Source: Candidatus Levyibacteriota bacterium
GTDB lineage: Bacteria > Patescibacteriota > Microgenomatia > Levybacterales > UBA12049
DNA: 64,000 bases
NCBI GenBank assembly: GCA_963722305.1
Contig: CAVRKE010000002.1
Span: 123,878 to 187,877, forward strand
Direction of reading: 5' to 3'
Positions within the stretch are counted from its first letter, which is position 1, and each line of letters opens with the position of its first letter. Of this stretch, positions 15,451 to 50,716 are shown piece after piece. Below the pieces are notes generated by a model, which was given only the letters and a program-made list of their open reading frames with translations, ran no database searches and was not told the DNA's origin. A program made the translations under genes and the position numbers.

Positions 15451-15771
15451 TTATTCATTATATACTGGTTCTTCCAATTCGCCAATGTTTTTCCCGTTTA
15501 CCGGAATTTTTAGCAAAAACCCCAAAGCGTTAGCAATTGAGACTCCCACTCTTAAACCCGTGAATGACCCTGGCCCTTTATTGACTCTAATTTCGCTTAT
15601 TTCATGAATATCTATTTTTCTTTGTTTAAGCAGTTTATCTATAGTTGGCAGTGCCAGCTCGGAACGAAAAAGTGTTGAATCTTCTGTTAGCTTACTTTTT
15701 TCTCCGTTAACCTCAACCCAAACCGTTATTTTTTTATTATCGGAAGTATCTATCGTCAAGATTTTAGCCAT
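15451..15771 (-). CDS. tsaB: tRNA t6A biosynthesis protein TsaB (truncated, N-terminal domain only)
   Basis: GPGSFTGLRVGVSIA motif. 106 aa. Confidence 0.65.
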   Translation of the reverse strand: MAKILTIDTSDNKKITVWVEVNGEKSKLTEDSTLFRSELALPTIDKLLKQRKIDIHEISEIRVNKGPGSFTGLRVGVSIANALGFLLKIPVNGKNIGELEEPVYNE

Positions 15772-15773
15772 AG

Positions 15774-16355
15774 TTATATCTTAAACTTTATTGCTCCCTG
15801 ACGCAAAATGACCCAAGGGATTTTAGTACAATCAATGACCGTTGAGGAACTTTTTAACGCACATTCACCTCGAACAACATAATCAACCAATGGAACTAAC
15901 TCTTTATTTAAATCCTTGAATTCGTAGGGAGTATTCTCTCCATGAAAATTTGCCGACGGACCTAAAATCGGTACGCCAACTTTTTTGATAATCTCTAATA
16001 CTACCGCCTGGTTTGGCATTCTTAGTCCGACTGTTTCTCCGCCTCCACGAACCAGCGAGGAAACCCTTTCTTTTTTGGCTTTCAAGACGATTGTCAACGC
16101 CCCCGGCCAATAAGGAATAATCAGTTTTTGCACGACGTCTTCCGGAATTTCTTCCAGATACTCTTTTGCCATTTCAATATCCGAAACAAGCACCGGAACA
16201 GCCTGAGACTGCGGTCTTTTTCTAATTTTGAACAATCGCTGAACTGCCCTTTCGTTATCTATCCTGCAGCCTATCCCAAAAGCGGTATCGGTCGGAAAAA
16301 TTACAATTCCGCCCTGGTTTAGAATCTTGACGGCTTCTTCAATTTGATTATCCAT
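15774..16355 (-). CDS. tsaC: L-threonylcarbamoyladenylate synthase
   Basis: YrdC/Sua5 motifs PTDTAFGIG and GPSANFHG. Confidence 0.85.
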   Translation of the reverse strand: MDNQIEEAVKILNQGGIVIFPTDTAFGIGCRIDNERAVQRLFKIRKRPQSQAVPVLVSDIEMAKEYLEEIPEDVVQKLIIPYWPGALTIVLKAKKERVSSLVRGGGETVGLRMPNQAVVLEIIKKVGVPILGPSANFHGENTPYEFKDLNKELVPLVDYVVRGECALKSSSTVIDCTKIPWVILRQGAIKFKI

Positions 16356-16367
16356 AATAATTAGAAA

Positions 16368-16814
16368 TTAGAAATTTTTGATTGTTATCTTTCTCTCATT
16401 ATCTTCCATATATTCACAATGAACATCGATTCTTTTTTTAGGCAGCATTTCTCCCATTTTCTCTGCCCACTCCAGGGCAATAACATTTTCCTGGTTATTG
16501 ATAATCTGGTCCAAACCTATTCCCAATAAATCATGTTTACTTTCGGTTCGATACAAATCTACATGGTAAAAGGATTTGGGACTGGGGATTTGGGACTGGG
16601 GATTTATTACATAATGCCTAACTATGATAAAAGTGGGTGAAATAATTCTATGAACAATGCCTAAGCCTTTGGCCAACCCTTGAATAAAAGTGGTCTTACC
16701 GCTGCCTAAGTCTCCGTAAAAAGCCACAAAATCTCCACCCTTTAACTTTCGGGCAAGTTCTTGTCCTAATTTTTTGGTTTCCTCACTTGAATTGGTAATA
16801 TATTCCTCATTCAT
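16368..16814 (-). CDS. tsaE: tRNA t6A biosynthesis ATPase TsaE
   Basis: Walker A GDLGSGKTTF and HVDLYR. Confidence 0.85.
   Translation of the reverse strand: MNEEYITNSSEETKKLGQELARKLKGGDFVAFYGDLGSGKTTFIQGLAKGLGIVHRIISPTFIIVRHYVINPQSQIPSPKSFYHVDLYRTESKHDLLGIGLDQIINNQENVIALEWAEKMGEMLPKKRIDVHCEYMEDNERKITIKNF
16572..16605. repeat. 14-nt tandem repeat (ggatttgggactgg x2.4) inside tsaE
   Basis: Direct repeat visible in the sequence. Encodes NPQSQIPSPKS, which looks inserted. Confidence 0.7.
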
Positions 16815-17592
16815 GCCGATATTTGTTGATTAATTTTAATATATAAGGATAGAAAAATACTATAGCACAAGCCCCAAGAAATACAACTCCGATGAGGATA
16901 AGCATTTTGGCCATCACGTTGCTGGCTTTGGCCGAAAAGGTTTCGATTTTTTCGGGTTTTGGAGTGGGAATTTGCAATTGTCCACTATCACTGCTTTCAC
17001 CAAGTACGGCTGAATTAGTTGAAGATATTATCGGTGTTACCGGTAGTGTGGGTTTTATGGTCGGAGTTGCAGTTGGTTTAAGAGTTGGTGTTGGTGTATT
17101 GGTCGGGGTTGGCTTTTGGGTCGGGGTTGGCGTGTTGGTTGGTGCGGTTGTAGGGGTTGGCGTTGGCCCGGAAATGGCAACAGTTGTTTCCGAAGACCAC
17201 AAGGGAGAACTGCAACTTGAAGTATAGCGGCCGACTTTAAATAAATATTCTCCCGGCCCGTTATAATAGGTACTGGCAATATCGGGCTTAAAACTTAATT
17301 TTCCGCTCCAACTACCTAAAGGGTTCAAATCGGCTTGCGCAATTTTAAAAAACGTCGTGCAATTTCCTCCGGACGCATTGCTCCAATTTCCGCTGTTGTC
17401 CTCGGTGTATCCAAAATAACTGCTGCCGCTTGGGTAAAACACGCCCCGAAGGTATGAGTCGCTGGTGCAGCCGGGACAGGCAAAATTGACGTCAACCTGA
17501 AACTCTTGGGCCCCATCAATCGTTGCGGGAACATTGTCTATGGACAGCGACATTGCGGCAAAAATACTTCCCGGGCAAAGCAGGCCTAACAA
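16807..17592 (-). CDS. Secreted/surface protein with a Pro/Thr-rich linker and a C-terminal TM anchor
   Basis: Signal-like N-terminus, a (PTPT)n linker, a C-terminal hydrophobic anchor. The start is uncertain: the ORF track uses TTG. Confidence 0.5.
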   Translation of the reverse strand: MLGLLCPGSIFAAMSLSIDNVPATIDGAQEFQVDVNFACPGCTSDSYLRGVFYPSGSSYFGYTEDNSGNWSNASGGNCTTFFKIAQADLNPLGSWSGKLSFKPDIASTYYNGPGEYLFKVGRYTSSCSSPLWSSETTVAISGPTPTPTTAPTNTPTPTQKPTPTNTPTPTLKPTATPTIKPTLPVTPIISSTNSAVLGESSDSGQLQIPTPKPEKIETFSAKASNVMAKMLILIGVVFLGACAIVFFYPYILKLINKYRHE

Positions 17593-17640
17593 TAAAACAA
17601 GATAAATAATTAGGGCAAATCTTTTTATCTTAAGTTTTAG

Positions 17641-18897
17641 CTACATTGAAACTTGATCTATTTCAAAAATACTCGAAGTTGAATAATGATCCGTAAAGGA
17701 GATGTCTTTACCGCTTTCGATAAACGGATCATCCATTACATAATTTCCGCCGGAGCCACTTTTAATTACCACAAAATGCGTTCCTCCGTAAGCATACATA
17801 CCGACTATCACCGGTCCGTTTTGCAAGGCAGCATTCAAAGACGAAACAGTGTTTCTGGAAATATTAACACCCTTAACGCTAATCGTATATCTAAGCATGG
17901 CCGTGTCGACAGCAAAATTACTGCCTGAAGAAACGGCGATATCGGACGGCAAGATATCTCGATGGCCCATATGACTAGCTACCATGGCGACTGAAGTTAT
18001 CAAGCATCCATATCCGGCCATCGAATATCCGGACTGTCCGTTAATCAAAATGTTTCCCCATTGAGAATCCCTTTGGTTGTAATAGCAACCCCAATCGTCG
18101 CAACTGGTCTGGTTGGAGAGTATCGAAGCTCCGCCCTGACTGGTAACAAATCTTGAGAACCCTGCCAATTCGGCTACGGCCTGATTATATTCTTGCTCCG
18201 CTGATGCCTCGTTCTCCTGTACTTGGGACAATAAATCCTGTTGAGCCTGTTTTTGCTGGGCCAGTTGGTCATTGTAAACTTTAAGCTGCTGCTGTAACTG
18301 TTCAACCTGTTGTTTTTCATTTTCCAAAATATTTTTCTGGTTGGTGTAATCAACTTTCGCTTGTTGGGTATCATAAATTAATTGTTTATCATGCTCTTGA
18401 GCCAGCTTTAGATAATTAAGCCTGGTAAAAAAATCGGACGCGGTAGTGGAGGTTAGCAATATTTCCACCGGCTGGATTGTACCCACTTCATAAGTTGCCA
18501 CAATCCGGTTGATAAGAACGGCTATTGATGTCTCTAAAGCATTTTGCAGATTAGTTATTTTTTTTATAGCGGTATCAATGTCCAAGGTTATACTGGTAAT
18601 TTGTTCCTGCGTTGCTTCTATTCGCGCTTGAGTTAGATTTATTTGACTTTGCATTAAGTCAATTTTTTCTTGCAGAGTATCGGCCTGACCGCTTAGTCCG
18701 TTTATCTTGTTCTGCATGTAGGTGGGACAATCGGCAACGCTGATATTATTATTTGCACAATCCGGGATATCGCTGGTTGCAGATGATGCATTAGCGGTTG
18801 GGGTTGGAGTTGTTTGGGAATAAACCAAATGCCTAGCAAGAACTAAAAATACAACCGCCAATAAAAAAATTACTATTTTCTTTAGTCTTAAATTCAT
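17641..18897 (-). CDS. Secreted coiled-coil protein with a C-terminal papain-like (Peptidase_C39_2-like) domain; a PcsB/CwlO-type FtsEX-coupled hydrolase candidate
   Basis: Signal peptide, a long Q/E-rich coiled coil, and a C-terminal GYGCLITSVAMVASHMGH Cys-His motif. Lies immediately downstream of ftsEX. Confidence 0.55.
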   Translation of the reverse strand: MNLRLKKIVIFLLAVVFLVLARHLVYSQTTPTPTANASSATSDIPDCANNNISVADCPTYMQNKINGLSGQADTLQEKIDLMQSQINLTQARIEATQEQITSITLDIDTAIKKITNLQNALETSIAVLINRIVATYEVGTIQPVEILLTSTTASDFFTRLNYLKLAQEHDKQLIYDTQQAKVDYTNQKNILENEKQQVEQLQQQLKVYNDQLAQQKQAQQDLLSQVQENEASAEQEYNQAVAELAGFSRFVTSQGGASILSNQTSCDDWGCYYNQRDSQWGNILINGQSGYSMAGYGCLITSVAMVASHMGHRDILPSDIAVSSGSNFAVDTAMLRYTISVKGVNISRNTVSSLNAALQNGPVIVGMYAYGGTHFVVIKSGSGGNYVMDDPFIESGKDISFTDHYSTSSIFEIDQVSM

Positions 18898-18924
18898 AAG
18901 TCATACATTTTGAATTTATAAATT

Positions 18925-19791
18925 CTATTTAAGATATCTTAGAACCGCTAAAAAGCTTGAGACAATACCCAAAAATACCGCAAATAAAACTTCCAGGCCA
19001 AGCAATAACAGAAGCGAAAAGTAAGAAACCGGCAAAACCGGAATTCCTTTTAAGAATGACTCCAAAAACGGCGAGGCATACAATAGTCCGGCAGTGGCAA
19101 TTAGCCAACCGATGACCGAACCAACAACCCCATAAAAGACTCCCTCATATATAAACGGCCAGCGGATATACCAATTTGTTGCTCCAATCAGTTTCATGAT
19201 TTCGATATCTTCTTTTTTCTGGGAAATTTTTACTCCGATTATTGTTACCATAATAAAGATGGAAACCAAAGACAAAAGGACAATTAAAACTATGCCAATT
19301 TTTCTTATCGCACCTGTCCATGCGCTTAGGGTGGAAACAACGTCTTTTTGGTAAACAACATCCGACACTAGCGGTGACTTTGTGAGCATATTGGAGATAT
19401 TTCCTAAATCTTCTATCTTAATCGTGGAGATTTCAAATGACGAAGGTAAAACGTCGGCGGTAACCAAATCCAAAAGCAGCGGGTCATTCTTATTTTGTTC
19501 TCTGTAAATTTTGAGGGCATCCTCTTTTGAAACAAATTTAATTGAGGCAACCTTACCGGTTGCTTTTAACTGATTTCCTAAAGCATCAATGTCCGCCTGT
19601 TTTGCCTCGTTTTTGAAAAAGGCTGTCACCTGAGGTTTTGACTCAAAATAATTGATTATTGTTGACGATCCGGCCAAAAGGAAGACAAAAAAGGATACTG
19701 CCAAAAAAGTTAAAGTCATGATTAGAATTGCCGCCAACGCCTGATACGGCGACCTTCGAATATTTTTCCAGGCAGTTTTAGTAATGTTCAT
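18925..19791 (-). CDS. ftsX: Cell division protein FtsX
   Basis: Four-TM permease-like topology with a large periplasmic loop. Confidence 0.85.
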   Translation of the reverse strand: MNITKTAWKNIRRSPYQALAAILIMTLTFLAVSFFVFLLAGSSTIINYFESKPQVTAFFKNEAKQADIDALGNQLKATGKVASIKFVSKEDALKIYREQNKNDPLLLDLVTADVLPSSFEISTIKIEDLGNISNMLTKSPLVSDVVYQKDVVSTLSAWTGAIRKIGIVLIVLLSLVSIFIMVTIIGVKISQKKEDIEIMKLIGATNWYIRWPFIYEGVFYGVVGSVIGWLIATAGLLYASPFLESFLKGIPVLPVSYFSLLLLLGLEVLFAVFLGIVSSFLAVLRYLK

Positions 19792-19808
19792 AGATTCGAT
19801 TCCTCACT

Positions 19809-19837
19809 ATGACCTTGAGCAATGTCGAACAGGTCAT
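19809..19837 (-). promoter_or_regulatory. Conserved intercistronic hairpin E2 (stem ATGACCT/AGGTCAT, loop TGAGCAATGTCGAAC) between ftsE and ftsX
   Basis: Same loop as E1, with two compensatory base-pair changes in the stem. The ftsE TGA lies in the stem. The spacer 19792-19837 is near-identical to 1172-1218. Confidence 0.6.
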
Positions 19838-20550
19838 TTCTTTTCCCCTCCCCTGTCCTCCGAAGCCGCCAATTTGGCGTGCGAAGGAGGATTTTCATCT
19901 TTGATAATCTTCCCCTTTTCAATATGAACTACTCTTTTCCCCAAGCTTTTCACAATATCTGTATTGTGGGTAGCCATCACCACGGTTGTTCCCTTTTTGT
20001 TGATATCCGACAGAAGTTTTACTATTTCCCATGAAGTTGCCGCATCTAAGTTACCCGTTGGCTCATCTGCCAAAAGTATTTCGGGGGACAAAACCAAAGC
20101 TCTGGCTATGGCCGCTCTTTGCAGCTCTCCCCCCGAAAGCTGCACGGGAAATTTATCTTTGTGTTCCGAAAGCCCAACTTGAGCTAAAATTTCTTCGACT
20201 GTCTTCGTGGCCTGGTCCAGTTTCACTCCGGCCACTTCTAAAGGCAACACAACATTCTCAAAAACAGTTCTGTCTAAAAGAAGCTTTAAATCCTGGAAGA
20301 CAAAGCCGACCTTTTTCCTTAAGCTGGAAATTTTATTTTTAGGAAGCTTAACCACATCCCAATCATTAACAATTACGTTTCCTTCCGTCGGCAAAATATC
20401 CCTTATCAAAAGCCTAAAAATTGTGGTTTTTCCGGCACCCGTCGAACCAACTAAAAAAACAAACTCTCCTTTTCCAATATCGAGAGAAACTTCAGAGAGG
20501 CCAAATGTACCTGTCCCGAATTTCTTGGAAACTTTATCAAGTTTTATCAT
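19834..20550 (-). CDS. ftsE: Cell division ATP-binding protein FtsE
   Basis: ABC ATPase with Walker A GSTGAGKTT, LSGGELQR and Walker B. Confidence 0.9.
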   Translation of the reverse strand: MIKLDKVSKKFGTGTFGLSEVSLDIGKGEFVFLVGSTGAGKTTIFRLLIRDILPTEGNVIVNDWDVVKLPKNKISSLRKKVGFVFQDLKLLLDRTVFENVVLPLEVAGVKLDQATKTVEEILAQVGLSEHKDKFPVQLSGGELQRAAIARALVLSPEILLADEPTGNLDAATSWEIVKLLSDINKKGTTVVMATHNTDIVKSLGKRVVHIEKGKIIKDENPPSHAKLAASEDRGGEKK

Positions 20551-21032
20551 TACTCAACTTCAACCCTGCCCACATCCATCAGCCATCCGGCGTGTTGGGC
20601 TGCTTGGGTTTGTCCCCAAACCTTAATTTTTTGATTGATAAATTTAGATAAGTCTACAATCGAAGATGTGAGGTAAACAGTTTGGCTGTCTCCACCCGGC
20701 CTGACCAAATGATAGGCACCTTCGCCGTCAATTCCTCCCGCCTGAAGTGTCCCTTCGGCAGTATCACTAAAAGTTTTCGTGTCGGTTGAGCCAACAACTG
20801 TTCCTTTTGCAACACTACCGGATGAGGTGTTCAAGATTCCTCCGGACGTAGTTCCAGTGGTTGATCCGCCTTTGTTTGAAAAGAAATAGCCGCTAACAAC
20901 ACCAACCAGAACCACCACCAAAAGCAAGGTAATCACTTTTGGCGTAAAGGCCGCTTTAATACTTTCCTTATTGAAATCATGGACCAACGGTGGCTTATTT
21001 ACTTCTTTACTTATTTCTGTTTTTTTATCCAT
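20550..21032 (-). CDS. Hypothetical membrane-anchored Gly/Ser/Thr-rich protein
   Basis: GGAGGTGA SD 9 nt upstream of the internal ATG (MDKKTEISK), so the start is refined from 21086 to 21032. Confidence 0.45.
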   Translation of the reverse strand: MDKKTEISKEVNKPPLVHDFNKESIKAAFTPKVITLLLVVVLVGVVSGYFFSNKGGSTTGTTSGGILNTSSGSVAKGTVVGSTDTKTFSDTAEGTLQAGGIDGEGAYHLVRPGGDSQTVYLTSSIVDLSKFINQKIKVWGQTQAAQHAGWLMDVGRVEVE

Positions 21033-21097
21033 CCTTATTAATTCACCTCCTTTATTAAGTAAACCATATTTTTCTCTCTTTGGCAACCGTTTTCGGA

Positions 21098-22102
21098 CTA
21101 CAACTTTCTTAGCTCTTCATCAATAAACTCATCTAAATCCCCATCTAAAACGGCCTCGGCGTTGGATGTCTCGTAGTTAGTCCGGAGGTCTTTGACCATT
21201 TTATAAGGATGTAAGACGTAGGAGCGGATTTGATTGCCCCAACCCGGGGTCTTGTACCCGCCTTTTAATTTTGCCTCCTCTTTTTTTCTTTCTTCCTCTT
21301 GCAAAAGCCATAACTTAGCTCTTAACATTTTTAAAGCGTATTCCCTATTTTGCCCTTGATAACGCTGCCCTTGGGCTGTGATGATGATTCCTGACGGTTT
21401 ATGCGTGAGCCGAACTGCGGTAGAAACCTTGTTGACGTTTTGCCCACCGTGGCCGCCGCTTCGGAAAAAATCCCACTCCAAATCCTCATCTTTTATTTCG
21501 ATGTCGGCGTTTTCCTCAATCTCCGGCATTACTTCCACCAAAGCAAATGACGTTTGTCTTAAATTGTCGGCGTTAAAAGGCGACTGTCTGACCAAACGGT
21601 GAACGCCGGCTTCTCCTTTTAGAAATCCATAAGCATATTCACCGCTTACTTCAATAACAATGCTTTTTAAACCGGCTTCTTCACCCGGAGTTTCTTCCAG
21701 CGTTTGATAACCCCAATCTTTTTTCTCAAAATAGTGGCAGTACATCCGATAAAGCATGTTCGTCCAATCCATTGCCTCAACCCCGCCCTGACCGGCGTGC
21801 AGGGCTAAGATGGCCGATGATAAGTCGTAGGGGCCGGAAAAATATAACAGCGTTTCAAAATCATTAAGAATTCTTTCCGCCTCTTCAAACCGGCCGGTTT
21901 TTTCCAGCTCCAAAAGTTTTTCCGCTTTCTGAATTTCCTCCGAAATAGTTGACATCTCCTTCATTTTTTGCGAGGCGGTTTTGTGGTCTTTCCAAAAATC
22001 TTGATGCGAGCTTTCCGCTTCGATTTCCCGAAGTCTCTTTCTTTTTTCGTCAATATTGAATTTTTCCAGAGCTTTTTTTATTCTTGTTTTAATCTCGTCC
22101 AT
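21098..22102 (-). CDS. prfB: Peptide chain release factor 2
   Basis: GGQ and SPF motifs. The ORF is contiguous with no +1 frameshift site. Confidence 0.9.
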
Positions 22103-22546: not shown

Positions 22547-23320
22547 ATGAATATTATACAAGCATTAATGATGTCCGCGGTTGAAGGAATTTCGGAATTT
22601 TTGCCGATTTCCTCCACCGGGCATATGATTTTAGCCGCAGATATTTTAAAAATCGCCCAGACCAGTTTTGTTAAAGATTTCGAAATTATTATCCAATTTG
22701 GGGCAATCCTGGCAATTGTGGTTTTATATTGGAACAGTTTGTTTAAAAGTCTCGAGGTCTGGAAAAGAATTATTGTCGCTTTTATTCCCACCGGAATTAT
22801 CGGCCTGCTTCTTTTTAAGCTTGTCAAGAATTATTTGTTGGGGAATTTGTATATAACTTTAATTTCTCTTTTCGTCGGAGGAGCTGTCCTCATAATACTT
22901 GAGCTAATCTACAAAGAAAAAGAACACCACCTTGAAGATATTGCCAAAATGAGTTTTCCGAAAGCTTTTGTCATTGGCCTTTTCCAGTCAATTGCCATCA
23001 TTCCGGGAGTCTCGCGGTCCGCCGCCACCATTGTCGGCGCCATGTTTTTAGGTACCAAAAGAAAAGCGGCCGCGGAGTTTTCTTTTGTTTTGGCTGTTCC
23101 GACCATGCTGGCTGCCACCGGACTTGATTTGGTCAAAACCAAATTTGACTACACACCAGCGGAGTGGTTTATAATGGCAGTGGGATTTTTTGGCGCCTTT
23201 GTTGTTGCCTTAATTTCCGTCAAACTTTTCTTAAAATATGTGCAGCGAAATAATTTTATTATCTTTGGCGTATACAGAATAATTGCCTCTATTCTGTTCT
23301 ACCTGATTGTAATTAGATAA
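22547..23320 (+). CDS. uppP: Undecaprenyl-diphosphatase
   Basis: BacA motifs (SEFLPISSTGH). Preceded by an extended -10 TGaTATAAT close to the ATG. Confidence 0.85.
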   Translation: MNIIQALMMSAVEGISEFLPISSTGHMILAADILKIAQTSFVKDFEIIIQFGAILAIVVLYWNSLFKSLEVWKRIIVAFIPTGIIGLLLFKLVKNYLLGNLYITLISLFVGGAVLIILELIYKEKEHHLEDIAKMSFPKAFVIGLFQSIAIIPGVSRSAATIVGAMFLGTKRKAAAEFSFVLAVPTMLAATGLDLVKTKFDYTPAEWFIMAVGFFGAFVVALISVKLFLKYVQRNNFIIFGVYRIIASILFYLIVIR

Positions 23321-23689: not shown

Positions 23690-23995
23690 ATCTTCAAGCA
23701 TTTCAAACTTTGTTTTTTCAACCGCATCTTTAATTTTTTCTTCGAGTTTTTCTATTTTAGATTTTAAATGCTCCAGGGTTTCCTGATGGTTATCGGAAAT
23801 CAAATTTTTTAAGAAAGTTTTTTTGTCTTCCTCGGTAAGTTCGGAAAGGATAATGTTCACGACCGTGCTATGAATATTTGCTTCCAAAAGCGAAGTTAAA
23901 TGCGCTTTTTCGTCTCTAGATAATTTCATTTCCGAAAGTCGAATAGAGACGTCTGTCGTCTCTATGAGATGGCTATAAAAAAACTGGTGATTCAT
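23648..23995 (-). CDS. Hypothetical coiled-coil protein
   Basis: 115-aa acidic, helical ORF. Confidence 0.3.
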   Translation of the reverse strand: MNHQFFYSHLIETTDVSIRLSEMKLSRDEKAHLTSLLEANIHSTVVNIILSELTEEDKKTFLKNLISDNHQETLEHLKSKIEKLEEKIKDAVEKTKFEMLEDLASAERLSQENKS

Positions 23996-24867
23996 AAATT
24001 AACCGGCCCCAAAGGAATTGTATCATCGGGATCATCAATAAAAAAATAGAGCACTCCGGCTCTTTGTTGCCCGTCGAATCTTTCCAGATAATTCATTACC
24101 TCCGGTGAGCCTCCCAATTGTTTACCTGTCCACGGTGATGGGCCGGCGTCAGCAATGTCTGCCACTACCGCTTTGCCATTGTCAGGATTAACCACCAGCA
24201 TTTTTCGGTACTTAAAAAAGTCAAGGTAGGCTTGTTTATTTTGGTCAAAACCCGGAGCGAGAAAAGTCTGCACCGCAATGTAATATTTTTCCCTGTCAAT
24301 CCCTTGTTGAGTAAGCTGTCCTGACGAATCGGTGAAATATCCCCATCCGCCCAGTCCCGGCGCCATTCCGTAAGACCAGTATCTTCCCGCATCCTGATTA
24401 TTTTCAAAATGTGTAAACATATTATCGCCCGGATACCTGACCAGATGCTGCTCCTGACCGATTATGCCGTAAGTGGTGTTAAGTCTTTTTCCATCCAATT
24501 CCGGAACAACAGTGAAGCTAAAGTTTTGCGATAAAATTTCGCTGACCTGTTTTTCTTCGTCCGGCGTCAAAGGTCGAACTTCACTCGGCAAAACTTTTTT
24601 TAAATCGTAAATGAGAAAAATTCTCTTATCGATTGTTTGCGCGGCTTGCGCTGAGCCTGAAGAAATAGTTTGGGGAACTTTATCCAAAATCGGCGAGGTT
24701 AATAACAAAACTCCGGCCAGTGAACCGATAATGAGTTGTTTTGAATTATCGGCCAGCCACTTGAATGCTTCCCTGTGGTTTTTGAATATTTCCGTTTGGA
24801 GCTCTTGGTGGCGCTTAGTCCATTTCTCGGCGAGGAATTGATAATATGAATTACTATTCCCGGGCAT
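23992..24867 (-). CDS. Membrane-anchored protein with a possible RlpA-like double-psi beta-barrel C-terminus
   Basis: N-terminal TM. C-terminal GKAVVADIADAGPSPWTG...GGSPEVMNYL resembles DPBB. Confidence 0.35.
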   Translation of the reverse strand: MPGNSNSYYQFLAEKWTKRHQELQTEIFKNHREAFKWLADNSKQLIIGSLAGVLLLTSPILDKVPQTISSGSAQAAQTIDKRIFLIYDLKKVLPSEVRPLTPDEEKQVSEILSQNFSFTVVPELDGKRLNTTYGIIGQEQHLVRYPGDNMFTHFENNQDAGRYWSYGMAPGLGGWGYFTDSSGQLTQQGIDREKYYIAVQTFLAPGFDQNKQAYLDFFKYRKMLVVNPDNGKAVVADIADAGPSPWTGKQLGGSPEVMNYLERFDGQQRAGVLYFFIDDPDDTIPLGPVNL

Positions 24868-24926: not shown

Positions 24927-25406
24927 TTAATATGGGTTTCCCTGGCGAGGCAATAGCCCGACGACAACTGTTTGCTCTCCTGTTTGAATCATATGGCTTA
25001 CTAAGTCTCCCTCGGGAAATGCGGGAGTGATACTGCCTTCCATCTCAACTGTCCCAGAATAAGCTATGCTCGGAGCGCAATCTGAACGCATGTGGAAGAA
25101 TAAATCTTCTCCTTTTTCATTAGCTCCTTCACCAACAGGACCAGGAAAAATTAACCTTTCACATGTTCCGCAAATTGGGGCAACTGGGGCATATGCTGTA
25201 AACCATTCTTGAAATTGTCTATATGTTCCCCTACGTGTAACCTGATATTCTTGACCCCTAAATGTTGCTGAGAAATATCGACGATTGGGCTGAGTCTCGG
25301 GGAATGTGGGGACTTCAGGTTGTTCCTCTTCTGGCGCAACCAACGATTGGCCTTCTTTTGTACCGCTTCCCCTGTGTAATAATCTTTTTAATCCCTCAGG
25401 AAACAT
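24927..25406 (-). CDS. Hypothetical protein (no recognisable family)
   Basis: 159-aa ORF, Pro/Gly/Glu-rich, with a CGTCE...C motif. Confidence 0.35.
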   Translation of the reverse strand: MFPEGLKRLLHRGSGTKEGQSLVAPEEEQPEVPTFPETQPNRRYFSATFRGQEYQVTRRGTYRQFQEWFTAYAPVAPICGTCERLIFPGPVGEGANEKGEDLFFHMRSDCAPSIAYSGTVEMEGSITPAFPEGDLVSHMIQTGEQTVVVGLLPRQGNPY

Positions 25407-25556: not shown

Positions 25557-26603
25557 ATGCACCAAATAAAAAACAGGTTTCTGGTCTTTATTTGCGCTCT
25601 GTTTGTTTCTTCATTTTTTTTTACTTCACCGGCGTTTGCGGGTAATCCTCCTGACTCCGGCCAATCCAGTCTTTCCACATCAGGTCAAGCACCGGCAGAC
25701 GGACAAACAACAATAACCATCACGATTACTCTAAAAGATAATTCAGGCAATACATTATCTGGAGATACCGTCAGCATTGCAGATTCAAGTAATAGCAGTG
25801 CTGTTATTAGCCCAAGCTCGACAACGCTCAATTCATCGGGGCAGGCAACTTTTACCATTACCTCAACCAACGCAGAGACTGATAATATTTCTGTTACCGA
25901 TACCTCTACTAATACCACTTTAGATAATCTTGGGCAGGTCACTTTTACTGCCATAGGCACTCCTACTCCAACGCCTGGCTCCTGTAACGACGGGGCGCCT
26001 GGCAGTACGCCGCAATTGACTTCTGCCGTAGCGGATGGAGATACCCAAATAACCTTGACTTGGGCAGATGCAACCGATCCCGTCAGCTATTATTTGGTTG
26101 CTTATGGATTGACGTCAGGACAGTATATTTATGGCAATCCTAATGTTGGCGGACAGGGAGTAACTTCCTATACGGTTAGTAACTTAGCCAGAGGGACAAC
26201 TTACTATTTTGCGGTCAAAGCGGTTAACGGCTGCAATCCAGGAAGTTTTTCCAACGAAGTTTCTGCTACTACCACCGGTGGAGTGATAGCTGCTCCTGTA
26301 ACTTCAACGGATACGTCTACGGATGTCACTGACGTTCCACCTACCGATACCCCAACTCCATCACCCGAAGCGCAACCGACTGTAACTCCTATTCCTGTAC
26401 AAACCTCAGCTGCGGGCATTTCGAAAACTCAAATGCTAATCTATATTCTCATACTTATCGTGGTCGTTGGCGGTGGCGGAAACTTTATTTACTGGAAATA
26501 TCGAAAAGGCAAAGAAAGCCCCATAAAATATATTGAACAGCATCAACCCCAAGAAAGTTTAAAGCCAGAAGAACCAGAAGAACCAGAAGAAAAGAATAGT
26601 TAA
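25557..26603 (+). CDS. Secreted surface protein with Ig-like and fibronectin type III domains, a Pro/Thr linker and a C-terminal TM anchor
   Basis: Signal peptide, FN3-like block (QITLTWADATDPVSYYLVAYG...YYFAVKAVNG), PT-rich linker, TM segment and a PEEPEEPEE tail. Confidence 0.6.
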   Translation: MHQIKNRFLVFICALFVSSFFFTSPAFAGNPPDSGQSSLSTSGQAPADGQTTITITITLKDNSGNTLSGDTVSIADSSNSSAVISPSSTTLNSSGQATFTITSTNAETDNISVTDTSTNTTLDNLGQVTFTAIGTPTPTPGSCNDGAPGSTPQLTSAVADGDTQITLTWADATDPVSYYLVAYGLTSGQYIYGNPNVGGQGVTSYTVSNLARGTTYYFAVKAVNGCNPGSFSNEVSATTTGGVIAAPVTSTDTSTDVTDVPPTDTPTPSPEAQPTVTPIPVQTSAAGISKTQMLIYILILIVVVGGGGNFIYWKYRKGKESPIKYIEQHQPQESLKPEEPEEPEEKNS

Positions 26604-32012: not shown

Positions 32013-32828
32013 TTATTTGCGGCGCCAAATCCTATCGTCGTCGAAAAACTCAAAAAAACAAAGCGTACTTATTGCGGAAATTATTAACCAAAAGAAAAAC
32101 TCTTCATAAGGAAAACGACAATTCAGTATCGTAACCCAACCGATAAAGTCTTTTCCGGGGAATTGCCATTGGTTTAAATGCAATCCTGTCAATTCATCCA
32201 ATAAACCTAAATAAAAGAAGTACGGCGCTGTTTTTAGGAATTTGGAAATATATTTCGGGAATTCAATAAGAAATGCAACCGATGGAATTAAAAGCCCGAT
32301 AATTCCTCCTTTTAAATAAAGGTAATCTATTTTTAGTAAATTCGAATTGGTAAAGACAAGCAGCAAAAAAATAGTAAACGAAGGAATGGCAAAATACATA
32401 AAATATTTCATGCGTGAATCCACTAATTTATGTTTACCCTTGTCAAAAAAATGCTCATAAAAAATTACCACAGAATAAAATATTAGAAATCCTCCAATTA
32501 AATCTTCTATAGGTATTGTGTTGAAAATTCTGAACGGGAATATGGTGGTGGTGTACCAAGCATTATTAAGTATCGCCATGTGGTCTACGATTAATGTGCC
32601 CAAAACCGAAGCAGGAAGCGAAAAAATTAGGCTATGGAGAATCGCTTTTTGTGTTCTATAGGAAAGATATAAAGAAGGCATGCCAAAAAATAAAAGTGTG
32701 GAGATCAAATAGCTGGTATTAAATGCGAATGACAAAACAACTGCCAATATTGGGGAAAAGATTAAAAGAAGAATATCCAGCTTTCTTAAATCTCTTTTAT
32801 AGGAAGCCATATAAATAAATCGTAACAA
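32013..32828 (-). CDS. Lycopene-cyclase-domain (CrtYcd-like) integral membrane protein, duplicated domain
   Basis: Seven or eight TM helices with two PxE(E/D) motifs (TIPIEDLIGGF and RFPYEEFFFWL). Confidence 0.45.
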   Translation of the reverse strand: MLRFIYMASYKRDLRKLDILLLIFSPILAVVLSFAFNTSYLISTLLFFGMPSLYLSYRTQKAILHSLIFSLPASVLGTLIVDHMAILNNAWYTTTIFPFRIFNTIPIEDLIGGFLIFYSVVIFYEHFFDKGKHKLVDSRMKYFMYFAIPSFTIFLLLVFTNSNLLKIDYLYLKGGIIGLLIPSVAFLIEFPKYISKFLKTAPYFFYLGLLDELTGLHLNQWQFPGKDFIGWVTILNCRFPYEEFFFWLIISAISTLCFFEFFDDDRIWRRK

Positions 32829-47242: not shown

Positions 47243-48694
47243 ATGAAGATTAATCTCCACAAGCTTAACAAACTTAAATTTGGCATCAGATTCAAGTACT
47301 CGAAACGTCTAATCCGCATTTCCCGGGTAGTCTTCTGGTTTTCTGTTGGTGCCATACTGTCATTTTTCTTTATCATCAGCTTTAGCTTTTTTGCATATCA
47401 AAAAATTTATGCAAACAAAGTTTATCAAGGAGTTTATGTTGATAATGTAAATTTTGGCGGCGAAACCAAACAGGCGGTAAGTGATTTCTTTACTGCAAAA
47501 AACTCCCAAATAAAAAACGCCCAGATTACTTTCGCAAGTGATTACGGGATTGCCACGGTTTCCGCCGGTCAAATCAGTCTTGGTTATGACCAAAATCTTT
47601 CTTCCGACCAGGCTTACAGCATCGGCAGATCGGGAAATCTGATTTCAGACCTAAGCATCATTCTTCAAGCTTATATCAATGGCATTTATCTTCCGGCAGC
47701 TTACTCCTATGATCAAAACACACTTTTAACTTTAATCCAGCCTGTTTCGCAAAAGATAGAAGAAAAACCTATTGATGCCCTGTTTAAATTCGAAAACAAC
47801 CGGGTAACGACTTTTCGGCCCTCTGAGAACGGGCAGACACTAGATCTTGACTTACTGGATAAAAAAATTGTTTCCGACATCCCCGACATTGTTTCCGCAG
47901 GAAGAAATTTAGCAGTCTCAATCACTATTCCTATAAAAATAATCCCACCCGACATTACTACCGAAAAGGTCAACAACCTGGGCATTAAAGAGTTAATCGG
48001 TGTTGGCCATTCTCTTTTTTATGACTCTATCCAAAGCAGAATCTTTAACATCAACCTTGCCGCTAACAGACTTAATGGCATACTGGTTGCCCCGGGTGAA
48101 ACTTTTTCCTTCGACAAAGCCCTTGGTGACGTCTCTGCCTTTACCGGTTATCAACAGGCTTATGTTATCCAGAACGGGAAAACCGTCTTGGGAGACGGCG
48201 GTGGAGTCTGCCAAGTTTCAACCACATTTTTTAGAGCTTTGCTTAACGCCGGCTTACCAATTGTGGAAAGACATGCCCATGCCTACAGAGTCGGCTACTA
48301 CGAGGAAGATTCTCCTCCGGGTTTGGATGCAACCATTTATGTACCCACTGTTGACCTGAAATTCTTAAACGATACCGGACATTATATTCTAATTCAAAGC
48401 AAAATCGACCTTGACAATTTGGCTTTAACCTTTGAGTTGTATGGAACAAGTGACGGCAGGCGGGTCATGATGACCACGCCGGTTGTCAGCAATCAAACGC
48501 CGCCGCCGCCGACTCTTTATCAGGATGATCCTACACTTCCAAAAGGACAATTAAAACAAACGGATTTTGCGGCTTGGGGAGCAGATGTCTACTTCACCAG
48601 AACCGTCACCAGAAACGGTAAAACAATAATTTTTGACAAATTTGTTTCCGACTACCAACCCTGGCAAGCGGTTTATTTAAGGGGGACGCAATAA
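47243..48694 (+). CDS. VanW-family protein
   Basis: VanW core with GGGVCQVSTTFF. Confidence 0.75.
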   Translation: MKINLHKLNKLKFGIRFKYSKRLIRISRVVFWFSVGAILSFFFIISFSFFAYQKIYANKVYQGVYVDNVNFGGETKQAVSDFFTAKNSQIKNAQITFASDYGIATVSAGQISLGYDQNLSSDQAYSIGRSGNLISDLSIILQAYINGIYLPAAYSYDQNTLLTLIQPVSQKIEEKPIDALFKFENNRVTTFRPSENGQTLDLDLLDKKIVSDIPDIVSAGRNLAVSITIPIKIIPPDITTEKVNNLGIKELIGVGHSLFYDSIQSRIFNINLAANRLNGILVAPGETFSFDKALGDVSAFTGYQQAYVIQNGKTVLGDGGGVCQVSTTFFRALLNAGLPIVERHAHAYRVGYYEEDSPPGLDATIYVPTVDLKFLNDTGHYILIQSKIDLDNLALTFELYGTSDGRRVMMTTPVVSNQTPPPPTLYQDDPTLPKGQLKQTDFAAWGADVYFTRTVTRNGKTIIFDKFVSDYQPWQAVYLRGTQ

Positions 48695-49247: not shown

Positions 49248-49691
49248 ATGAAGATTACCTATTTTTTATTAGTAGCATTTATCATCCTCGTTGTTGTCCT
49301 TTTGAAAATCGATTATTTCAGTCCCCAACCACCAACCGCCGAAATCAATGGGCATGTATTTTCTCTATATCTTGCCAAAACGGAGTCTGAACAGGAAGTG
49401 GGACTAGCGAAATTTGATAGAATCGCCAATCATCAAGGTATGCTTTTCATTTTCCAAAAGCCCGATTACTATTCTTTTTGGATGAAAAACATGAAATTTC
49501 CAATTGATATTATTTTTATTAATAACGATAGAGTAGTCGACATTTTTCAGAATGTTCCCGTACAGAAAGACACTAATAATCTTCCGACCTACACCACCGG
49601 CGAAAAAGCCGATAAGGTACTGGAAATAAATGCCGGCTTGGCAAAGCAATACAGCATCAAGATCGGTACGGAAGTGGGGATTAATTTGTGA
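49248..49691 (+). CDS. DUF192 domain protein
   Basis: GMLFIF...FWMKNMKFPIDIIFI. Confidence 0.65.
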   Translation: MKITYFLLVAFIILVVVLLKIDYFSPQPPTAEINGHVFSLYLAKTESEQEVGLAKFDRIANHQGMLFIFQKPDYYSFWMKNMKFPIDIIFINNDRVVDIFQNVPVQKDTNNLPTYTTGEKADKVLEINAGLAKQYSIKIGTEVGINL

Positions 49692-50716
49692 CGATACTTG
49701 GCATTGAAACAAGTTGCGATGAAACCTCAGCGGCAGTAATCACAGCCGACAAAAATGATCAGCAAGTCAAGCTTTTGTCAAATATTATTGCTACCTCCTT
49801 AGCTCTTCACGCCAAAACCGGTGGTATAATTCCCGAAGTTGCCGCCAGAGAGCAGGTCAAATTTATAATTCCGGTGATTGAAAAATCGCTTGAGGTTTTA
49901 AAAAATCCGCAAAGGGAAATTGATGCCATTGCCGTCACTGTCGGACCTGGGCTAATCGGCTCGCTCTTGGTTGGAGTCGAAACTGCCAAAACCATGGCTT
50001 ATGTTTGGCATAAACCGCTTATCCCCGTCAATCATCTGTCTGGACACATCTACGCAAATTTCGTTAGCGAAATTCATAAATCTAAGGAGATTGAGTTCCC
50101 CGCCATCGCGCTGATCGTTTCCGGCGGACATACCGATTTGGTGTTAATGAAAAGTCATAATAATATCCAATGGCTGGGCGGAACCAGAGACGATGCGGCC
50201 GGCGAGGCTTTTGATAAGACAGGTCGACTTTTAAATTTGCCGTATCCGGCCGGACCGCAAATTGAACAGTTGGCAAAAGGCATAGAAAAAGACGTTTACC
50301 ATTTTCCCAGGCCGATGATCGGTACCGATGATTTTGATTTTTCCTTTTCCGGATTAAAGACCGCCATCTTAAGGGAAGTGCAAAAACTACAAACTCCGGA
50401 TTATGACGAAATTAGAAATATCAGTTTTGCTCTCCAGGAGGCGATTTTTGCGGTTCTCACTAAAAAAACTCTTCGGGCGGCAGAAAAGTTCAAAGCCAAA
50501 TCAATTCTCTTAGGTGGTGGTGTTGCTGCCAATCAGACGTTAAGAAAACGTTTTGAATTAGAAATTAGAAATTTGAAATTAGAAATTCCGCTTTTCATAC
50601 CCGAGAAGCGGTTGTGTACCGACAACGCTGCCATGATCGCCGCTGCTGCATTCTTTAACAACGAAGAAGCCGACTGGAAAAAAATTTCCGCCAACCCCGA
50701 ACTTTATTTTGATTAA
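49688..50716 (+). CDS. tsaD: tRNA N6-adenosine threonylcarbamoyltransferase
   Basis: Kae1/TsaD motifs (GIETSCDET, SGGV). Confidence 0.9.
   Translation: MTILGIETSCDETSAAVITADKNDQQVKLLSNIIATSLALHAKTGGIIPEVAAREQVKFIIPVIEKSLEVLKNPQREIDAIAVTVGPGLIGSLLVGVETAKTMAYVWHKPLIPVNHLSGHIYANFVSEIHKSKEIEFPAIALIVSGGHTDLVLMKSHNNIQWLGGTRDDAAGEAFDKTGRLLNLPYPAGPQIEQLAKGIEKDVYHFPRPMIGTDDFDFSFSGLKTAILREVQKLQTPDYDEIRNISFALQEAIFAVLTKKTLRAAEKFKAKSILLGGGVAANQTLRKRFELEIRNLKLEIPLFIPEKRLCTDNAAMIAAAAFFNNEEADWKKISANPELYFD
50692..50713. repeat. Direct repeat DR1 (CAACCCCGAACTTTATTT) at the 3' end of tsaD
   Basis: An identical 18-mer recurs at 51648-51665. Both copies encode NPELYFD-stop, with synonymous differences after the shared core. 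Confidence 0.8.

Follow-up and report, generated by a model that had tools for sequence, protein, structure and literature searches.

Introduction

FtsEX-controlled cleavage of the cell wall is a central step of bacterial division that, to our knowledge, has been worked out only for partners of the CHAP, NlpC/P60, and LytM types. The Patescibacteria (candidate phyla radiation, CPR) account for a large share of bacterial diversity and are mostly uncultured, and we know of essentially no study of their division machinery. Here, we analyze a 64,000-nucleotide (nt) stretch of DNA from a Candidatus Levyibacteriota bacterium (the window), in which a gene block on the minus strand contains ftsE, ftsX, and a gene for a 418-residue coiled-coil protein with a C-terminal Peptidase_C39_2 domain, hereafter CCpep.

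The closest described systems differ mainly in what the coiled coil carries. PcsB of Streptococcus pneumoniae, secreted in a monoderm-type setting, has an N-terminal coiled coil of five helices and a C-terminal papain-fold cysteine peptidase, or head, of the CHAP family (PMC11627006). CwlO of Bacillus subtilis and RipC of Mycobacterium tuberculosis comprise a two-helix hairpin, a linker, and a C-terminal cysteine peptidase of the NlpC/P60 family; the linker of RipC is a 52-residue proline-rich segment (PMC11627006), and CwlO is reported to require the cofactors SweC and SweD (PMC6705773). EnvC, from Escherichia coli, Vibrio cholerae, and Pseudomonas aeruginosa, has a degenerate LytM/M23 head without catalytic residues that activates AmiA and AmiB, and a segment of its coiled coil, at approximately residues 114-160, contacts two FtsX extracellular domains (ECDs) (PMC11627006). 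In Corynebacteriales, the NlpC/P60 peptidases RipA and Cg1735 are autoinhibited by their coiled coils, and a small membrane protein, SteB or Cg1604, releases them through its extracellular domain, independently of FtsEX.

Classical C39 peptidases are cytoplasmic, fused to ABC exporters, and cut double-glycine leaders, according to a 2023 survey of papain-like peptidases in the Journal of Biological Chemistry (JBC). The same survey describes C39_2 members as single-domain peptidases associated with transporters and mentions neither a coiled-coil nor an FtsEX context. Phage-lysin surveys count C39_2 among endolysin catalytic domains, by Pfam only. Our literature search found no paper that places a C39_2 head on a coiled coil of the FtsEX type or that deals with FtsEX partners in Patescibacteria/CPR.

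On balance, we favor a reading in which CCpep is the extracellular effector of FtsEX, a peptidase that would be tethered and activated by FtsEX and would cut peptidoglycan with its C39_2 head. FtsEX with a coiled-coil hydrolase is already well known; the novel part is probably the C39_2 head on such a scaffold, a variant and not a new system.

Results

CCpep Resembles the Coiled-Coil Partners of FtsEX

The two genes upstream of CCpep are assigned to ftsE and ftsX (Table 1). The ftsE product has its best NCBIfam match to the FtsE model TIGR02673 (263.8 bits, profile positions 1-214 of 214), 1 bit below the cut-off of 264.85 and far above every other ABC ATPase model, and scores 116.5 bits against Pfam ABC_tran. 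FtsX exceeds the cut-offs of both Pfam FtsX_ECD (65.2 bits) and Pfam FtsX (56.7 bits); its scores against the NCBIfam models FtsX_Gpos (194 bits) and FtsX_Gneg (190 bits) are each under the model's own cut-off. Its whole length can be aligned with FtsX chains of known structure, those of V. cholerae, P. aeruginosa, E. coli, and M. tuberculosis (E 1e-17 to 4e-15). The protein has an extracellular domain at approximately residues 50-150 and a C-terminal FtsX permease-like region of four transmembrane helices. The CCpep gene starts 27 nt downstream of ftsX. A promoter and terminator scan, whose site counts were within chance, found no terminator-like site in this gap, which is consistent with co-transcription, although the scan itself is not informative. 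The gene order given in the initial annotation, in which a proline/threonine (PT)-rich open reading frame (ORF) follows CCpep, was recovered for all four genes.

Relatives of CCpep were collected in a family alignment (A1; 40 sequences, 52-79% identity to the window protein) and a domain-only set (A2; 20 sequences). An AlphaFold model of CCpep, computed with the family alignment, comprises an N-terminal hydrophobic helix, a helical hairpin, and a confident C-terminal α/β domain. All 40 aligned relatives share the hydrophobic N terminus, followed by (A/S)Q(T) and a PTPT-rich spacer, and CCpep is probably cleaved at a VYS/QT-type site and exported. The hairpin is formed by helices 57-136 and 153-253, joined by a turn with a short helix (143-148). 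It is thus a plain two-helix hairpin like that of CwlO and RipC, in contrast to the five helices of PcsB, and it is connected to the head by a highly conserved linker of only ∼12 residues, far from the long proline-rich linker of RipC.

A Foldseek search with the whole model places the N-terminal coiled coil of RipA first among the solved structures and PcsB second, and then EnvC from the FtsEX complex of V. cholerae, Cg1735, and RipC from that of M. tuberculosis; the matching entries are 6ewy, 9hmx, and 8aud for RipA/Cg1735, 8tzl and 6tpi for EnvC in the FtsEX complex, and 8idc and 8jia for RipC. By sequence, the best solved match to the family profile is the coiled coil of E. coli EnvC, which is collinear with that of CCpep over EnvC residues 34-233 (E 2e-5). 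The family profile was needed to reach EnvC: phmmer with the single CCpep sequence against the PDB sequences returned coiled-coil noise only. Likewise, the Pfam CC_PcsB model scores 20.8 bits on the window protein (residues 114-181), under its cut-off of 27, and is matched by 34 of the 40 relatives, with a best E of 5e-8. The likeness to PcsB and EnvC suggested in the initial annotation is therefore borne out by fold, by profile, and by family-wide matches, and RipC can be added to it.

The CC_PcsB match covers the tip of the hairpin, which reads NRIVATYEVGTIQP..LLTS..SDFF.RLNYLK.AQ.HDK.LIYDTQQAK and in which T135, Y136, S150, Y162, L163, Q167, D170, Q179, and A180 are invariant or nearly so. 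Because the tip aligns with the EnvC segment that contacts two FtsX ECDs, we propose that it is the site at which CCpep would dock onto the FtsX ECD.

Approximately half of the family, including the window protein, has a two-cysteine insert (DCANNNISVADC) before the first long helix (residues 46-57, ∼18727-18762, minus strand), which is absent from the other half. Together with an invariant pair of cysteines in the head, Cys266 and Cys271, this insert suggests extracellular disulfides.

The C-Terminal Head Is a Papain-Fold Domain with Invariant Putative Catalytic Residues

Pfam Peptidase_C39_2 (PF13529) matches residues 272-385 of the window protein (profile positions 5-134 of 143) with 26.4 bits against a gathering threshold of 24, and 38 of the 40 relatives match it (best E 4e-9). 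The borderline Pfam scores of the single CCpep sequence are thus solid at the level of the family. CHAP (PF05257) and NlpC/P60 (PF00877) have no match at E ≤ 0.1 in the window protein, and neither is among the 25 families most frequently matched by the 40 members; the lone match to an NCBIfam model named for NlpC/P60 (DIP1281 family, 21.4 bits against a cut-off of 517) spans residues 27-245, which is coiled coil and not head. This agrees with the initial annotation, which had preferred a C39_2-like head to CHAP or NlpC/P60 and so set CCpep apart from PcsB, CwlO, and RipC.

Classical Peptidase_C39 (PF03412) matches 9 of the 40 members, weakly. The C39 domains of ComA and PCAT1 share the papain-type Cys/His peptidase fold with the CCpep head, but they are distant from it (template modeling score, TM, ∼0.5). 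Unlike those of classical C39 exporters, the head lies at the C terminus of a secreted-type coiled-coil protein, has no transporter fusion, and contains the additional invariant Cys266 and Cys271.

Besides these two cysteines, the segments invariant in the 40 sequences are WGCYYNQRD, Gly297-Cys298, His374-Phe375, and Asp390-Pro391. Within the first of these, Gln275 is the putative oxyanion residue, and with the putative triad of Cys298, His374, and Asp390 it makes up a Gln/Cys/His/Asp set that, judged from sequence, corresponds to a papain-type active site. In the full-length model, Cys298 begins a helix (298-309) and His374 lies on a strand (372-382), in the papain-type order on an α+β fold. 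Modeled alone, the head reaches a predicted local distance difference test score (pLDDT) of 94.8 and a predicted TM (pTM) of 0.91. Among solved structures, the folds closest to it, all of them weak matches, are those of a papain-like toxin (9l5u), the pseudomurein endoisopeptidase PeiR, and the C39 domains of ComA and PCAT1. In a comparison with viral structures, it best matches a tail tape-measure protein, a cyanophage "lysozyme," and phage "peptidases"; a comparison with PHROGs gave one insignificant match.

The other contexts of the domain bear on its likely substrate. Two proteins (P0310 and P0315) have two LysM repeats fused to the head subtype found in CCpep, behind an N-terminal membrane segment, and this fusion is the most direct hint we found that peptidoglycan is the target of this subtype. 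Giant proteins of 3,691-5,477 residues (P0283, P0291, P0298, P0303, P0318, and P0322) contain two to four stretches matching it, and in one further protein the domain occurs together with WGG-type repeats. Searching for homologues with the head alone returned 57 proteins, mostly gene fragments on short contigs that say little about other architectures. The LysM fusions and the resemblance to phage lytic proteins suggest that peptidoglycan may be the substrate of the CCpep head.

Two sequence subtypes of the head occur among 39 loci and the window: INGQSGYSMAGYGCLITS..ASHMGH in 8 of 40, including the window, and LNGTQY.LASDGCLVTSMAMVYTHYGH in 32 of 40. On the housekeeping tree, the two subtypes are interleaved, and head distances are uncorrelated with those of prfB, ftsE, ftsX, and tsaC (r -0.13 to 0.07; 0.19 with the coiled coil). 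This pattern suggests either cassette exchange or ancient paralogy followed by differential loss.

CCpep Is Kept Next to ftsX, and Its Coiled Coil Co-varies with FtsX

A word-indexed search finds more than 1,560 homologues of CCpep. Most are unnamed; those with names are called "peptidoglycan hydrolase CwlO-like protein" by JGI and "C39 family peptidase" by NCBI. An exhaustive search with the head profile yields 99 clusters (50% identity) at E ≤ 1e-30 and 746 at E ≤ 1e-10, and the best matches are nearly all proteins of ∼400-445 residues with the domain at the C terminus.

We examined gene order in one genome per species, giving 323 genomes with a CCpep relative, and analyzed the best 80 loci, which probably belong to the Microgenomates/Levybacteria group of Patescibacteria. 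In 76 of the 79 loci that include the upstream region, ftsX lies immediately upstream of CCpep, so the synteny anticipated in the initial annotation is present; within this lineage, neither a noncatalytic or unrelated head nor a loss of synteny undermines the annotation. The pcsB gene, by comparison, is not known to be adjacent to ftsEX in the pneumococcus. Counting a junction as broken when it exceeds 400 bp, the junction between ftsX and CCpep is broken in 0 of 76 loci, that between ftsE and ftsX in 0 of 73, and that between ftsE and the gene of a small membrane protein upstream of it in 0 of 67. In contrast, the flanking junctions are often broken, between prfB and the small-protein gene in 17 of 54 loci and between tsaE and tsaC in 8 of 66, and the interval from CCpep to tsaE ranges from 25 to 3,240 bp. 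Since the three inner junctions are never broken and the flanking ones often are, the small-protein gene, ftsE, ftsX, and the CCpep gene appear to be a unit kept by selection. The recurring gene order and the number of homologues are more than chance.

Co-variation was measured in 40 sequences (39 loci and the window) with all genes, by partial Mantel tests in which a housekeeping baseline of prfB, tsaC, and tsaE was regressed out. The coiled coil of CCpep co-varies with the FtsX ECD (partial r 0.45) and with the transmembrane part of FtsX (0.51), values close to that between the two halves of FtsX (0.47); the known contact of FtsE with the transmembrane part of FtsX gives 0.67 (p 0.0005 for all four pairs). 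Between the C39_2 head and the FtsX ECD, the value is 0.12 (p 0.06). These values fit co-evolution of the coiled coil, but not of the head, with FtsX. The same co-variation could arise if adjacent genes had been transferred or recombined together, and we therefore take it as supportive only.

A Conserved Bitopic Membrane Protein Is Encoded Upstream of ftsE

The small protein is 160 residues long from its probable ATG, and its stop codon overlaps the start of ftsE. It comprises a short cytoplasmic N terminus, one transmembrane helix, a Gly/Ser/Thr linker, and a highly conserved extracellular domain of ∼85 residues, in which the alignment gives the motif TFKDTAEG..GGIDGEG.YHL.RPGG.SQ.VYLTSS..DLS.F...K.KVWG.T..AQ.AGWLMDVG. 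In 67 of 67 loci, its gene immediately precedes ftsE, without insertion. Homologues number 2,909; of the best 120 listed, all that have a name are "hypothetical" and none has a Pfam domain. The lone Pfam match of the window protein is a weak one to FtsH_ext (19.1 bits against a cut-off of 25.5).

The extracellular domain of the small protein co-varies with the FtsX ECD (partial r 0.31, p 0.0005) and not with FtsE (0.06); its co-variation with the coiled coil of CCpep is weak (0.23, p 0.01). The small protein may be an accessory factor of FtsEX. Its conservation in the CCpep block is reminiscent of SteB and Cg1604, which accompany RipA and Cg1735. No similarity to Cg1604 was detected by sequence.

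A Model for CCpep and Its Alternatives

By analogy with PcsB, CwlO, RipC, and EnvC, a mechanism can be proposed that builds on the domain identities, the conserved catalytic residues, the similarity of the coiled coil in fold and profile, and the unbroken gene block. CCpep would be exported by Sec, and the tip of its hairpin (approximately residues 129-181) would dock on the extracellular domains of an FtsX dimer, holding CCpep at the membrane. At rest, the coiled coil would keep the papain-fold head at the C terminus inactive. When FtsE binds and hydrolyzes ATP at the divisome, FtsX would relay this to the coiled coil and the head would be freed; the Cys298-His374-Asp390 triad would then cut a peptide or amide bond in the septal peptidoglycan, allowing the daughter cells to separate.

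A broader version of this model would include the small bitopic protein. In this four-gene machine (small protein, FtsE, FtsX, and CCpep), the small protein would be a new extracellular accessory of FtsEX, functionally comparable to SweC/SweD or SteB, and the catalytic head would be an exchangeable cassette; the two C39_2 subtypes are scattered on the housekeeping tree while the coiled coil tracks FtsX. We offer this version tentatively and think it more doubtful than probable.

Several observations weigh against CCpep as the effector of FtsEX. The ftsEX block is embedded in a long, tightly packed, co-directional gene string (1215-22102), and in a genome whose genes are packed in this way over ∼21 kb, inferring an operon by adjacency alone is weak. 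The whole region from prfB to tsaB is conserved, and so adjacency and co-variation may in part reflect shared history rather than function. The full-length model has a pTM of 0.44, at which the placement of the head relative to the coiled coil, and hence autoinhibition, cannot be read from it. The fold matches of the head are weak (E ∼1e-2, TM ∼0.45-0.5) and include ComA and PCAT1, leader peptidases that do not act on the wall; for peptidoglycan cleavage by C39_2, our literature search found Pfam-based lysin lists only and no biochemical proof. The best single fold match of CCpep is RipA, and control of the RipA homologue Cg1735 does not involve FtsEX. Other candidate partners of FtsX may be encoded in the rest of the genome.

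Nor is the link to ftsEX universal. Three related genomes carry CCpep away from ftsEX, beside an FTR1 permease, a sulfatase-like gene, or hypothetical genes. More distant, Moranbacteria-type genes for coiled-coil C39_2 proteins follow gltX, another follows proS, and none adjoins ftsEX. In one high-GC relative, L081 (GCA_964383855.1, CAYLIP010000017.1, 1168-10595), ftsE-ftsX is followed instead by a gene for a coiled-coil M23 (EnvC-like) protein, and the coiled-coil C39_2 gene is found two genes upstream of the ftsE-ftsX pair. Two coiled-coil candidates thus flank one FtsEX in L081, with a CHAP protein also encoded nearby.

The main alternative is an autolysin of the RipA/Cg1735 kind, in which the coiled coil autoinhibits the head, a membrane protein other than FtsX (possibly the small bitopic protein) releases it, and adjacency to ftsEX is merely inherited gene order. 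The leading fold matches (the N-terminal coiled coil of RipA, the SteB-RipA complex, and Cg1735) point in this direction, as do the activation of Cg1735 by the extracellular domain of a transmembrane protein and not by FtsEX, the unlinked homologues in Moranbacteria-type and three Microgenomates genomes, and the presence in the same unbroken block of a conserved bitopic protein that co-varies weakly with the coiled coil. However, the best solved relative of the family profile is the coiled coil of EnvC, which binds FtsX, and most members match the CC_PcsB model. The junction between ftsX and CCpep is intact in all 76 loci, while nearby junctions are broken in some; the gene is thus tightly linked to ftsEX, whereas the RipA system is FtsEX-independent. 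The coiled coil co-varies more strongly with FtsX than with the small protein. We consider this alternative unlikely.

Less probable still is that the head, in analogy to the C39 leader peptidases, is a protease that processes secreted or surface proteins, among them the PT-rich anchored protein, or else leader peptides at the cell surface. ComA, PCAT1, and a papain-like toxin are indeed among its nearest named solved folds, some members also touch Pfam Peptidase_C39, and no C39_2 member with proven peptidoglycan activity was found in the literature search; yet canonical C39 domains belong to ABC exporters and lie in the cytoplasm, whereas this head is predicted to be secreted, on a scaffold that is that of wall hydrolases and their activators. 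Domains of the same type occur fused to LysM repeats and are similar to virion-associated and lytic proteins of phages. A surface protein with a VLGES motif before its anchor is encoded next door in most loci and could serve as a substrate, but its gene is absent from six of them and does not keep its adjacency to CCpep. Finally, although no solved structure is closer in sequence to the coiled coil than EnvC, which illustrates that an FtsEX-bound head can be degenerate and amidase activating, an inert C39_2 domain that merely binds and switches on a separate hydrolase is highly implausible here, given a papain triad and Gln motif that, unlike a degenerate site, are invariant in the 40 sequences and in the domain-only set.

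If CCpep is the effector of FtsEX, it would be a fourth catalytic family on the same coiled-coil scaffold, with the scaffold conserved and the head interchangeable, and Peptidase_C39_2, so far a "predicted" lysin domain, would gain a concrete physiological role. The gene-linked set is compact, at ∼1,100 residues, and suited to reconstitution. Current models would not be overturned; a known mechanism would be extended to a major uncultured lineage and a new enzyme family. The four-gene version, if true, would be the first wall-splitting apparatus to be defined in Patescibacteria and would assign C39_2 a role in peptidoglycan for the first time. The conserved fourth gene and the apparently exchangeable catalytic head were unexpected additions.

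The Adjacent PT-Rich Surface Protein

The product of the ORF that follows CCpep contains a stretch rich in PTPT and ends in a hydrophobic anchor with basic residues after it. Its homologues comprise a signal peptide, an N-terminal domain of ∼120 residues, a PT-rich linker, a VLGES motif, and a C-terminal transmembrane helix with a conserved aCGIL. In ∼60 loci, they are encoded between CCpep and tsaE, with VLGES ∼30 residues before the transmembrane helix, which has a small-Cys-Gly-Ile-Leu core and a basic tail. The combination of VLGES, helix, and basic tail looks like a sorting or processing signal that is neither LPXTG nor PEP-CTERM.

The initial annotation listed this protein in the gene order with ftsEX; its membership in the module is not borne out by synteny. 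The gene is present in most loci, always adjoining tsaE, and absent in L006, L011, L015, L016, L031, and L052. In L007, L013, L055, L058, L065, and L080, inserted genes part it from CCpep, so that insertions fall on the CCpep side while the PT-rich gene stays with tsaE. We therefore rejected it as a module member; it is probably not part of the FtsEX module.

In the window, the PT-rich ORF is in the same frame as CCpep, with one TAG between them, and the frame is open up to 17640. The junction (17593-17643, minus strand) reads stop-LKLKIKRFALIIYLVLL before the first canonical start, the TTG at 17592. Upstream of this TTG is a region resembling the n and h regions of a signal peptide; it contains no ATG, GTG, or TTG, and it has an ATA codon (∼17621) where homologues have ATG. 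A fusion of the two proteins by read-through of the TAG was rejected, as CCpep homologues end at the same ...VSM and in other genomes the two genes lie apart or the second is missing. In the public annotation of an identical contig (L087), the gene call omits the PT-rich ORF and calls a 106-residue antisense ORF within the PT repeat.

Genomic Setting

From 15.4 to 22.1 kb, the ORF map of the window has all genes on the minus strand, with gaps of 0-50 nt, and the minus-strand string continues unbroken for ∼21 kb (1215-22102), with gaps that are tiny or overlapping. The coordinates of the block and of the features of CCpep are collected in Table 1.

Table 1. Genes of the ftsEX region and features of CCpep in the window
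Feature	Coordinates	Strand	Description
prfB	21098-22102	minus	ORF in window
Small bitopic membrane protein gene	20550-21086	minus	longest ORF to 21086; probable ATG start 21032
ftsE	19834-20550	minus	ABC ATPase, 238 residues
ftsX	18925-19791	minus	membrane subunit, 288 residues
CCpep gene	17641-18897	minus	coiled-coil Peptidase_C39_2 protein, 418 residues
CCpep signal peptide, residues 1 to ∼27	18817-18897	minus	predicted, MNLRLKKIVIFLLAVVFLVLARHLVYS/QT; hydrophobic helix 4-21
CCpep antiparallel coiled-coil hairpin, residues 57-253	18139-18729	minus	AlphaFold secondary structure
CCpep hairpin-tip region, residues 129-181	18355-18513	minus	CC_PcsB match and conserved columns
CCpep Peptidase_C39_2-like papain-fold domain, residues 266-418	17644-18102	minus	Pfam and domain model
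Cys298 codon	18004-18006	minus	putative catalytic nucleophile, motif G-C-L-x-T-S; invariant in A1 and A2
His374 codon	17776-17778	minus	putative general base, motif H-F-V-V; invariant in A1 and A2
Asp390 codon	17728-17730	minus	putative third triad residue, motif M-x-D-P; D390-P391 invariant in A1 and A2
PT-rich ORF	16807-17592	minus	261 residues from TTG start
tsaE, tsaC/sua5, short tsaB-like ORF (106 residues)	15451-16814	minus	directly downstream of module

The window also encodes UppP/BacA (22547-23320), a VanW protein with a putative peptidoglycan-binding PG_binding_4 domain (47243-48694), and a secreted CAP-domain protein. A cluster for nucleotide sugars and glycosyltransferases at ∼4.2-14.2 kb contains PMT_2, GT2-GtrA, several epimerase/dehydratases, UDP-glucose dehydrogenase, and an RmlD-like gene. 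With UppP/BacA, VanW, and this cluster in the window, the description of the lineage as cell-wall-minimal in the initial annotation is not supported.

The tsaB-like ORF is far shorter than a typical TsaB, and tsaD (49688-50716, plus strand) lies 33 kb from the tsaE/tsaC/tsaB cluster. Three minus-strand ORFs, at 23992-24867, 24927-25406, and 32013-32828 (291, 159, and 271 residues), have no Pfam match at E ≤ 1e-4. The first of these has an N-terminal hydrophobic segment and is placed between the FtsEX region and a Big_1/fn3 surface protein (25557-26603).

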